Assembly (NCBI GenBank): GCA_030295235.1 | Contig: AP026173.1 | Location: forward strand, 434,001 to 498,000 | Direction of reading: 5' to 3' | Source of the DNA: Fistulifera solaris | Taxonomy: Eukaryota | DNA: 64,000 bases | In this document: positions 952 to 4,252 of the stretch, one piece after another | How the letters are laid out: the number at the start of each line of letters is the position of its first letter | How positions within the stretch are numbered: position 1 is the stretch's first letter | The notes under the pieces: generated by a model | Seen by the model: the letters and a program-made list of their open reading frames with translations, nothing else | Databases searched by the model: none | What the model was told of the DNA's origin: nothing | Translations under genes and position numbers: made by a program

Positions 952-2961
952 ATGTTCGCCAGAGGTACTGCCATGCATTCGGCGCGCAAAGGCTCACCCA
1001 ATACCGGTAGTCACACGTCCGGTGATAAATTTGATCGCTTCGAGAAATGGTTGCGTGACAACGGTGCAAGATTCGATCAGGTAAGGGAAGCCGGCCATCC
1101 ATCAGTGAACACTCCATCGAACATCTTATCGCTGACTTTCGTTACTGTTGAATGATGTATGCAGCTTGAAATAAAAGTATACGATGATGGATCTTCATCG
1201 TCTCGTGGGAGAGGAGATGACAGCAACGAGGAGAAGAAAGACACGGTGACAAAGGACGATGGAGAAGAATCCGAAATGCGCGGAGTTCACGCTCTGTCTC
1301 ACATTCCTCCGAATACTCTCGTTATGACAATTCCGCGAAAATGTCTCATTACGGTCGAAATGGGCCAAGCTACACCAATAGGTCAAGCTATTCTCAATTC
1401 CGATCTGGACCTTGACGCGCCAAAACACATCTTCCTTATGGTCTACTTGTTGTGGGATCGGAAAGTGAATGGAACGAATTCCTTCTTTTATCCTTATTAC
1501 GAAGTCTTGCCGAAAACACTAAAAAATATGCCTATATTCTGGTCCATGGAAGAATTAGCCGAGTTAAATGGAAGCTATCTGCAGCAACAGATTGCGGATC
1601 GTAATCAAGCTATAGCGGAAGATTACCGTGCCATATGCGAAGTGGCACCTCAGATGCGCGAATTGGCCACGTTGGAGGAGTTTAAATGGGCACGCATGTG
1701 TGTCTGCTCGCGTAACTTTGGTCTACAAATTGATGGGCACCGCACGAGCGCCCTTGTTCCGCACGCCGACATGCTCAACCATTATCGTCCCCGTGAAACA
1801 AAGTGGACGTTTGACGAGGATCGACAAGCATTCACAATCACATCACTGCAACATATTGGGAAAGGCTCCCAAATTTATGACTCGTACGGACAAAAATGTA
1901 ATCATCGTTTTTTACTCAATTACGGCTTTGCTGTGGAAGACAACCGCGAACTGGATGGCTTCTGTCCCAATGAAGTCCCTTTGGAGCTTTATGTCTCTCC
2001 GGATGATCCCCTATTAAATGAAAAGCTTGAATTTTGGACGAGAGGCGAAATTAATGACAAAAATCACGGACCTCCCGGGCGAGCGACGACTCGACTACAA
2101 TCGACTCACGCAGCCGAACCATTAGGTGTTCCGCCTCTTTTGAAACGTATCAGGGTTTGCGTTTCGAGTAATGAGAACACGCGTCTTCTGTTCAGTCTTC
2201 TAAGAGCTTTAGCTTGCAATGGCCCGGAACTACATGCTCTGGCATCGCCAGTTTCTGCTTCCTGCGGTCCTATCGTGCGGGGCGACGACCGCAGTTCAAG
2301 CAACGTTGCGCGCAGCTTGTTTGGATTTCCTGAGTTGCCATCGTCGAATAGCGTCTTAACTGGCAGCCCTATGCCATTCGGTGCTACCTATCATCGCTCT
2401 TGTCGTGACATACGCCACCCTGTGAGCTTGCGAAATGAGCGCGCCGCACTTCGGTTGTTATTGCAAATTGTAGAACGACACCTTTCGGCATATTCGACAA
2501 CACTGGCCGAAGATGAGACCGACCTCCTTGACGAACTAGCATATCCTCGATTCAGTAATAAACGCCACGCCAAAATACAAGTTCGTGGAGAGAAGGAAGT
2601 TTTGCACCATTTTGCTCGCTGGGCAACAACGGCACTGGAAGTTTTGGACGTAATAGAGGAAGAGTTACAGGAAGAAAGGGGATCCATTGAGGTTTCCAGC
2701 ACAGGTCGTGTTTCAGTGGTTAATCATGAAGAACGACCTTCCTTCGACTTCCTGATTCAGCGTATGGAGGATGATGCCGAATCTCGTGACATCGGACACC
2801 ATACAATAGTTCGTTATTGTGCAGATGTACTGGGAAGTCTGAGGCGTGAGGAGTTCAAAAATATTCGACGACAAAGAGTCCTGCAGCAAGAGCAGCCGCG
2901 AGCTCGAACGTCATCCGGGCGTATCTGGAGATCCCATGAACCTGGTAGCAGTAAAAGATAA
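952..2961 (+). CDS. SET-domain protein methyltransferase (Rubisco-LSMT/SETD3-like)
   Basis: Exon 952-1080, GT-AG intron 1081-1164, then ORF to 2961. Motifs FEKWL..NGA, MRGV, VCSRNF, ALVPHADMLNH, IYDSYG...FLLNYGF and a C-terminal substrate-binding-like region (YSTTLAED...VRGEKEVL). Confidence 0.85.
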
Positions 2962-3610: not shown

Positions 3611-4252
3611 ATGAAGTTCTCTGCTGCTTTCGTTGCTTTGATTGCCGGAGCTACGGCTTTCACTCCGGCTCAGCCAAGCTTTGCTCGCACTTCCGTCAAG
3701 GTATACAACCTTGAGAAAGGTGCCGGTAAGTCATCTCAACAAATGATGTGTTTAAATATTTCAAATTCTGAATGCAGTTGGATTCTCACGCAATTCGACA
3801 TTACAGGAGGTATGTTCGACACACGCAACCCCGACCCTGTGAAGCACGAAGATGCTCGCAAGTCGATCAGTGAGGCTCCGTCGTTCGAAGAGTACATGAA
3901 AATGCGAAGTGGCGGTGCCCCTGCTGCCCCTGCCCCCGCACCGGCGGCTTACACACCTCCCGCTGCTCCGGCCTGGGCTCCTCCGGCTGCCCCCGCTTGG
4001 GCTCCCCCGGCCGCTCCGGCCTGGGCTCCTCCGGCCGCCCCCGCTTGGGCACCTCCCGCTCAAGCGCCCGCCCCGTGGTCGCCACCGGCCGCCGCCCCGG
4101 CTCCTGCTGCCCATGGCGGTGCCCCAGTCAAGGGTGCCGGTGGTATGTTCGATACCCGTGATCCGGAACCAGTCAAGCACGAGGACCCTCGCAAGTCGAT
4201 CAGCGCCGCTCCTTCCTTCGAAGAGTACATGAAGATGCGTAACAACCAGTAA
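3611..4252 (+). CDS. Plastid-targeted Pro/Ala/Trp repeat protein with a duplicated ~37-aa terminal motif; function unknown
   Basis: Signal peptide MKFSAAFVALIAGATA|FTP (ASAF-type). Intron 3726-3806. Two copies of KGAGGMFDTR(N/D)P(D/E)PVKHED(A/P)RKSIS(E/A)APSFEEYMKMR flank a PPAAPAWA repeat tract. Confidence 0.85.
   Translation: MKFSAAFVALIAGATAFTPAQPSFARTSVKVYNLEKGAGKSSQQMMCLNISNSECSWILTQFDITGGMFDTRNPDPVKHEDARKSISEAPSFEEYMKMRSGGAPAAPAPAPAAYTPPAAPAWAPPAAPAWAPPAAPAWAPPAAPAWAPPAQAPAPWSPPAAAPAPAAHGGAPVKGAGGMFDTRDPEPVKHEDPRKSISAAPSFEEYMKMRNNQ
3950..4110 (+). repeat. Coding tandem repeat, 24-bp unit encoding (W/Y)APPAAPA, about 6 units
   Basis: YTPPAAPA-WAPPAAPA-WAPPAAPA-WAPPAAPA-WAPPAQAPAP-WSPPAAAPAP, with synonymous variation between units. 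Confidence 0.9.

Follow-up and report, generated by a model that had tools for sequence, protein, structure and literature searches.

In a 64,000-nucleotide stretch of the Fistulifera solaris genome (contig AP026173.1 of assembly GCA_030295235.1, positions 434,001 to 498,000 of the forward strand; hereafter the window, with position 1 its first letter), we analysed a gene at 3611–4252 whose plastid-addressed product carries two near-identical motifs joined by an uncharged Pro/Ala spacer. The motif defines a large and widespread family, apparently undescribed, of which the window gene encodes a two-headed member and which also tags membrane proteins of CCM type (CCM, CO2-concentrating mechanism), making red-type pyrenoid organisation directly testable. 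The motif may be the tag by which various proteins dock to the Rubisco matrix of the pyrenoid, the window protein acting as a bivalent cross-linker, a reading that we consider plausible, though short of probable.

Gene structure and plastid address

The gene is real and spliced, is apparently expressed, and carries a predicted plastid address. It lies in an open frame of 213 codons (3611-4252, + strand), with the following features:

3611-3658, + strand: signal peptide, cleavage predicted before Phe17
3611..3725, + strand: exon 1, encoding the signal peptide, a transit-peptide-like stretch and the first motif-1 residues (KGAG); splice donor GT at 3726
3726..3806, + strand: intron of 81 nt, GT..AG, in frame; skipped in contigs of runs X2, X3 and X4, its 27 extra residues being absent from homologues
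3807..4252, + strand: exon 2 including the stop codon, encoding the rest of motif 1, the spacer and motif 2 (translation P0001)
3809..3907, + strand: motif copy 1 (GMFDTRNPDPVKHEDARKSISEAPSFEEYMKMR), direct repeat D1; predicted helix at 3884-3910
3908..4126, + strand: uncharged Pro/Ala spacer with a Tyr, 4 x AWAPPAAP and PWSPP; pLDDT 50-74, no secondary structure
4127..4249, + strand: motif copy 2 with lead-in and tail (VKGAGGMFDTRDPEPVKHEDPRKSISAAPSFEEYMKMRNNQ), which served as the 41-residue query; predicted helix at 4217-4243

The intron opens with GTAAGT at 3726 and closes with a CAG ending at 3806; the frame stays open across it, hence it is invisible to a scan for open reading frames (ORFs), and it was overlooked in the initial annotation, which had read the locus as a single ORF. 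Contigs from three runs of two studies (X2 and X3 from one, X4 from the other), which like X1 are RNA only by a guess in their records, join 3724 to 3806 with GT..AG ends. Run X1 retains the intron and has two versions of this unspliced form, the first identical and the second differing at 11 positions over 147 nt. Once the intron is removed, ...EKGAG|KSSQQ... becomes ...EKGAGGMFDTR..., the exact lead-in that motif 2 has, and homologues in other assemblies (P0004 and P0005) have EKGAGGMFDTR without an insert. Since the 81-nt intron is spliced and the relatives read through, the product is a protein of 186 residues in which motif 1 starts KGAG|GMFDTR, like motif 2. The order presequence, motif, (WAPPAAPA)n, motif given in the initial annotation is otherwise upheld by the translation, by a 24-nt tandem repeat and by a 101-nt direct repeat. 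A second copy, P0003, encodes a 97% identical protein; in run X1, two versions of the locus stand side by side over window positions 3688-4087 (with 11 differences across 147 nt and again 11 across 209 nt).

At the N-terminus, MKFSAAFVALIAGATA|FTP represents a hydrophobic signal peptide whose end is ...GATA|FTP. The heterokont plastid-import signature is an ASAFAP motif with Phe at +1, and the corresponding [A/G/S]-F pair stands at the end of the signal peptide in 23/23 of the homologues with a preserved N-terminus among the 27 sequences of alignment A1. The presequence, called from this sequence pattern and the alignment, agrees with the plastid presequence proposed earlier. No second hydrophobic targeting domain was found after the signal peptide; the 186-residue protein (presequence included) would therefore be a stromal adaptor, and a lumenal protein was rejected on the same ground.

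End motifs and spacer

P0001, the 147-residue translation of exon 2, consists of motif GMFDTRNPDPVKHEDARKSISEAPSFEEYMKMR, the Pro/Ala spacer and motif GMFDTRDPEPVKHEDPRKSISAAPSFEEYMKMR; NNQ and a stop codon complete the frame. At the DNA level the two motifs form a direct repeat of 101 nt (3806-3906 / 4139-4239) with 81% identity, and the encoded copies are identical at 29/33 residues, the 17 differing codons comprising 13 synonymous and 4 non-synonymous changes. These proportions point to an old duplication in which both copies have been kept under purifying selection; a chance repeat was rejected in view of the conservation of the motif.

AlphaFold2, run with alignment A1, gave a mean pLDDT of 63 and a pTM of 0.16, the sole secondary structure being two 9-residue helices at FEEYMKMR (residues 26-34 and 137-145). 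The model is of a protein that is intrinsically disordered apart from one short helix per motif. The combination of disorder with repeated short structured elements that characterises the linker class is thus present in the prediction, with only two copies of the element here. Of the probable amphipathic helix PSFEEYMKMR that had been proposed, the helix is retained, whilst its amphipathic character is not supported by a simple test: 841 of 2000 shuffled sequences reach the observed hydrophobic moment, which does not stand above the shuffles.

The spacer is 83% Pro+Ala and contains no K, R, D or E. Its aromatic residues fall at P0001 positions 48 (Tyr), 56, 64, 72, 80 and 90 (Trp), in four AWAPPAAP units and then PWSPP, so that the spacing of one aromatic every 8 residues noted in the initial annotation holds over positions 48-80; Tandem Repeats Finder reports a period of 24 nt (4.4 copies, 3956-4060) encoding these Trp repeats. 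About 70-76 residues separate the motifs, within the sticker spacing of 20-120 residues by which Rubisco linkers are defined (PMC11570498).

In the 53 collected proteins that have at least two full motifs, spacer length has a median of 52 residues (range 20-98). At least one spacer aromatic is present in 50/53, and a [WY]-x-[PA]-P element in 41/53; the six aromatics of the window protein lie at the high end of this group.

Motif family

An exhaustive search with the 41-residue motif alone, among 1.84 billion representatives, returned 145 clusters at E<=0.001, 56 of them at E<=1e-10. A word-indexed search gave 157 proteins of 80-258 residues at E<=0.01, the best 120 of which were inspected, and 66 of 259-2000 residues at E<=0.001. 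The initial annotation had suggested looking for the terminal motif in single and double copies, and both single-motif and multi-motif proteins are present. Over 268 distinct instances from 270 proteins the consensus is.GaGGMaDTRdP....heDpRKSIsaAPSFEEYlK.R, and positions that were not fixed by the search pattern (G, G-G, P, D, R-K-S-I, A-P, K and R) are 92-100% conserved. With its main alternatives, the motif can be written approximately as G-x-G-G-M-x-D-T-R-[DN]-P-x4-H-E-D-P-R-K-S-I-S-x-A-P-S-F-E-E-Y-[LM]-K-x-R.

Pfam gave no match to the whole protein (best E 0.22, below the cut-offs), nor did PDB sequence searches with the whole protein, the 41-residue motif, a bestrophin tail, or relatives P0034 and P0388. 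The motif strings were not found in a full-text search of papers, and literature searches aimed at a new linker, or at a Rubisco-binding motif in diatoms or brown algae, gave green-lineage work and reviews only. A CP12-like protein was also considered and rejected, there being no Cys pairs and no AWD-VEEL core.

Named diatom members include both centric and pennate genera (Coscinodiscus, Odontella, Trieres, Cyclotella, Licmophora, Cylindrotheca, Amphora and Nitzschia). The named brown-algal members, from thin sampling, all belong to the Ectocarpales (Ectocarpus spp., Pylaiella, Nemacystus and Scytosiphon), a pyrenoid-bearing order, and there is one xanthophyte member, in Tribonema minus. A further member, with a source name beginning 'Kry', presumably derives from the diatom-bearing dinoflagellate Kryptoperidinium.

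Modular architectures

The 287 motif-bearing proteins among the 439 collected fall into the following classes, as assigned by our own sequence signatures:

43/287: spacer-only, two or more motifs
32/287: domain with an NFNPFE mark, the members seen ending CPGC
30/287: fasciclin-like (Pfam Fasciclin)
26/287: ~260-residue domain with the fold of red-chlorophyll-catabolite reductase (RCCR) and the ferredoxin-dependent bilin reductases (FDBR)
5/287: bestrophin (Pfam Bestrophin_2)
2/287: peroxidase-like fragment (P0121, P0401)
1/287: methyltransferase (Pfam Methyltransf_11)
1/287: iota-carbonic-anhydrase-like (Pfam CaMKII_AD x2)
147/287: single-motif fragments or other

Pfam Fasciclin was precomputed on 25/66 of the long matches; of the 41 long matches that were scanned, 3 gave Bestrophin_2 and the other 38 no family.

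Valency varies widely. P0324 has 3 full motifs, P0327 combines 3 such motifs with 2 helix-only copies, and P0328 has 3 variant motifs and one helix. By its layout the most linker-like member of the family is P0388 from Nemacystus decipiens (356 residues), with 9 helix-only copies (LSPYEEYMASR and variants) placed 23-36 residues apart and, 45 residues past the ninth, the helix of one full C-terminal motif, giving ~10 helix copies in total.

Among the proteins with folded partners, P0156 and 25 relatives (~450 residues, apparently diatom) combine the motif, an aromatic-repeat linker (for example YDYSSWGQPAA x3) and the domain with the RCCR/bilin-reductase fold. AlphaFold2 models this domain with pLDDT ~90 over residues 181-443, and Foldseek places it closest to 2zxk_B (E 3.5e-8, TM 0.63 on the target), with 41 matches at E<=0.001 that are nearly all RCCR or ferredoxin-dependent bilin reductases; the Atlas lead scores 0.90, and Pfam does not recognise the domain in the P0156 group. 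In P0045, P0046, P0050 and others (the 32/287 class, from many diatoms), the motif is followed by a conserved domain of ~100 residues, YGKYD...NFNPFE...GNSPDASG.YPGE.RYKDP...GCPGCR, for which Pfam gave no identification and an Atlas search no usable match; the terminal CPGC hints at redox chemistry. P0108 from Trieres chinensis bears the source label 'PS II 12 kDa extrinsic protein', which looks wrong, as its content is the motif followed by GRGSYLDSIQGPGR-type repeats.

Motif-bearing membrane proteins

In five bestrophins (P0158, P0168, P0197, P0222 and P0397), a Pro/Ala linker leads to the full motif, which forms the extreme C-terminus. Bestrophin tails were examined in 121 proteins (the best 120 of 498 matches, plus P0197), P0397 having come from the 41-residue motif search instead; no named Phaeodactylum tricornutum or Thalassiosira pseudonana protein is among the best 120 of 498. 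A short helix of the [LM]SFE[ED]FLKSQG type ends 15/121 of the tails, and other elements recur as LNxxWAxAS (8), SYLDxL (4) and KRFFKR (4); 86/121 have none of the named tails, some of them stopping within or just after the channel domain. The SYLDxL element is shared with the repeats of P0108.

Tail type differs between close relatives. Among compared bestrophins 68-83% identical to P0158, P0222 (83%) ends in the full motif, P0209 (78%) in the short helix and P0208 (78%) in LNxxWAxAS, which suggests that the tails are interchangeable; taken together, the tail elements look like a code for sub-plastid sorting. LNxxWAxAS resembles, by eye only, the large-subunit-binding helix AAEWGSMNQ of the P. 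tricornutum Rubisco linker PYCO1 (PMC10288592). The bestrophin PtBST3 is reported to be pyrenoid-localised and to spread over the plastid once its C-terminal extension (407-519) is cut, with no motif found in the extension by its authors (PMC11142338). By analogy, we infer a tie between the motif-bearing bestrophin tails and this published result.

A second type of membrane protein is represented by P0403, in which a presequence and the motif are followed by a predicted membrane segment whose hydropathy averages 1.9 over 19 residues, a Pro/Ala linker and two iota-carbonic-anhydrase (iota-CA)-type domains with HHHSS/NHHSS, HHHSS being an iota-CA signature (PMC8395977). The iota-CA-like layout of P0403/P0444 suggests a lumenal carbonic anhydrase pinned from the stromal side.

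Proposed role and alternatives

In the mechanism that we favour, each motif would dock one copy of a conserved, multi-copy plastid receptor, such that the two heads of the protein would tie one receptor molecule to another; the uncharged Pro/Ala spacer would set the reach, and the regularly spaced Trp/Tyr-x-Pro-Pro elements would add weak extra contacts. The same 36-residue linear element, its last part forming the short helix, would be a tag that is portable between otherwise unrelated proteins of the plastid across ochrophytes. The likeliest receptor would be the pyrenoid Rubisco matrix, the multivalent members then being Rubisco linkers, and the single-motif members (bestrophins, the membrane-anchored iota-CA-like protein and enzymes) would be anchored at the matrix or at the thylakoid running through it; the family would then be a red-lineage analogue of the Rubisco-binding motif shared among green-algal proteins. 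A docking tag for one conserved and abundant receptor is proposed because the 36-residue element is near-invariant and portable, and occurs in 1 to ~10 copies. The Rubisco matrix is ranked first because of the spacer-only multivalent forms, the tagged bestrophin and iota-CA-like proteins, the parallel with PtBST3, and the restriction of the brown-algal members to the Ectocarpales. Both the cross-linking role and the identity of the receptor are thus what we infer from these patterns. The initial annotation had proposed a disordered condensate or cross-linking protein; the disorder, the plastid address and the sticker-and-spacer build stand, and the tether role is strengthened by the multivalent relatives and the tagged bestrophins and iota-CA-like protein.

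Several observations weigh against a Rubisco-matrix tag. No computation here ties the motif to Rubisco. The exon-2 protein is near-neutral (pI 6.3), unlike EPYC1 and PYCO1, which are basic linkers, and the window protein has only two strong candidate stickers. The full motif is found in only 4/121 of the bestrophin-like proteins. Tribonema, a presumably pyrenoid-less genus, has a member, and the motif-bearing enzymes with the ferredoxin-dependent-reductase fold or peroxidase-like character fit the acceptor side of photosystem I (PSI) at least as well. No match named P. tricornutum or T. pseudonana is among the matches listed; as only about a quarter of the database proteins are named, this cannot be read as absence. 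Any link to the published pyrenoid proteins PtBST3, TpBST1/2 and DPC1-4 is putative. The likeness to PYCO1 stickers was noted only by eye, and a phmmer search of PDB chains at E<=10, in a library that may or may not include a PYCO1 fragment chain, returned none from PYCO1. A complex prediction that joined motif 2 to diatom RbcL and RbcS, both taken from a plastid contig of a metagenome, made without alignments or controls, gave a score of 0.00 and a mark of 0.34 and counts neither way.

Alternatively, the motif could dock a protein of the thylakoid surface or of electron transfer, such as ferredoxin-NADP reductase (FNR) or the stromal ridge of PSI, in which case the family would tether enzymes and channels to thylakoids, and the two-headed protein would bridge two receptors or membranes. 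The fusion partner with the RCCR/bilin-reductase fold (the 2zxk_B match and Atlas lead given above), the peroxidase-like fragments P0121 and P0401, the CPGC-ending domain and the Tribonema minus member all speak for such a receptor. In plants, FNR is tethered to thylakoids by Tic62 and TROL, through a Ser/Pro-rich polyproline-II motif that binds the FNR dimer. The arrangement of P0403, with a stromal motif, a membrane segment and a lumenal-type domain, resembles that of TROL. The brown-algal LSPYEEYMASR may also share L-S-P-Y-x-x-Y with the FNR-binding repeat of Tic62; a search of papers for the Tic62 strings found none. However, the 43/287 spacer-only multivalent proteins have no membrane anchor and make little sense as membrane tethers, the bestrophins and the iota-CA-like protein are already membrane-embedded, the element is predicted to be helical rather than polyproline, and it has no detectable similarity to any PDB chain; furthermore, the named brown-algal members are limited to the Ectocarpales (albeit on thin sampling), although FNR and PSI are universal. 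We regard a thylakoid receptor of this kind as a serious alternative, if somewhat less likely than the Rubisco matrix.

Two further alternatives we consider improbable. In the first of these the receptor would be the family itself, two- to five-headed proteins forming a homotypic network that single-motif proteins join. Multivalent and single-motif forms do coexist, and precedents are available in the self-associating stickers of PYCO1 (PMC10288592) and, from hornworts, in the coiled-coil STAR extension that RbcS carries (PMC13655443); nonetheless, the AlphaFold2 monomer, which has no tertiary structure at the pTM given above, shows no packing between its two motifs, and the helix, only ~9 residues long and highly charged, does not favour self-association. 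The motif might otherwise be a regulatory or sorting element, either a kinase or 14-3-3-type site (R-K-S-I-S) or a signal for a sorting or chaperone factor, with the two-headed protein as a decoy or buffer. R-K-S-I is 97-100% conserved and seems to resemble a basophilic kinase site, and phosphorylation controls linker-Rubisco binding in Chlamydomonas (PMC13086578). Conservation nearly throughout 36 residues is, however, far beyond the need of a phosphosite, and up to ~10 copies at regular spacing point to multivalent binding, leaving a regulatory role only a slim chance.

The docking of the motif to the Rubisco matrix can be extended to a bolder proposal, which we hold to be doubtful: that the motif is the universal pyrenoid tag and Rubisco dock of ochrophytes (diatoms and those brown algae that have pyrenoids), that the spacer-only members with 2-10 heads are the missing linkers in lineages without PYCO1, and that the tag pins bestrophin bicarbonate channels and a lumenal iota-type CA to the thylakoid crossing the pyrenoid. 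Diatom pyrenoids account for roughly a fifth of global CO2 fixation, and we know of no targeting rule for red-type pyrenoids. T. pseudonana has neither a known linker nor a known homologue of PYCO1, which is reportedly missing from centric diatoms (bioRxiv 10.1101/2023.10.26.564148), and PYCO1 is still the sole diatom linker in a 2026 review (PMC13655443). Were the receptor FNR or PSI instead, the motif would still be new, as a tethering code for ochrophyte thylakoids.

Neighbouring gene

The product of a gene lying 650 nt upstream on the same strand (window 1159-2961, +) combines a SET domain (Pfam E 1.3e-13) and a Rubisco-LSMT substrate-binding domain (Pfam E 2.5e-6); no plastid presequence was seen on this ORF. 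In a eukaryotic genome, the adjacency may well be coincidence.

Comparison with known systems

PYCO1 (PMC10288592) is a close counterpart in build, being likewise a diatom, plastid-addressed, disordered protein of the sticker-and-spacer type. Both have Trp-Ser/Ala-Pro elements, PWSPP and AWAPP in the window protein and KWSPR in PYCO1, and relatives P0034 and P0121 carry GRNYSPFSYSPRGG (GR[ND]YSPFSYSPRGG) in the spacer, recalling by eye KWSPRGGS. In line with the initial annotation, the window protein is not PYCO1 itself: its translation lacks KWSPR(GGS), GTGYNP and AAEWGSMNQ, and it has two main stickers of 36 residues, whereas PYCO1 has six short ones. The motif family moreover occurs in centric and pennate diatoms and in brown algae, in contrast to the reported absence of PYCO1 from centrics noted above (bioRxiv 10.1101/2023.10.26.564148).

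Tic62 and TROL are similar in that a repeated short motif follows Pro-rich linkers on unrelated proteins, one of which is a thylakoid membrane protein. They differ in that the motif described here is predicted to form a helix rather than polyproline II, has no similarity in the PDB, exists in spacer-only multivalent forms, and in diatoms takes the form P-S-F-E-E-Y.

The green-algal Rubisco-binding motif system comprises EPYC1, BST4, RBMP1/2 and SAGA1/2 of Chlamydomonas, SUPA1 of Ulva and CsLinker of Chlorella; Meyer et al. (2020) reportedly described a pyrenoid-targeting motif shared by the linker and unrelated proteins. As in the family described here, one helical element is found on a disordered linker and on unrelated proteins, including the C-terminal tail of a bestrophin and other membrane proteins, and the stickers are spaced within the range of 20-120 residues (PMC11570498); the shared Rubisco-binding motif is also reported in Ulva (bioRxiv 10.64898/2026.07.16.738900). 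In the green system the element has Rubisco binding and pyrenoid targeting to its name, whereas in our family the sharing of the motif, between bestrophin, iota-CA-like protein with a membrane segment, fasciclin, RCCR fold, methyltransferase and CPGC domain, is known at the sequence level. The two elements are unrelated in sequence, the conserved one here being much longer (36 residues) and belonging to the lineage with red-type form ID Rubisco. If the motif does prove to be a universal ochrophyte tag, it would represent a system of the red lineage with an evolutionary origin separate from that of the Rubisco-binding motif in green algae.

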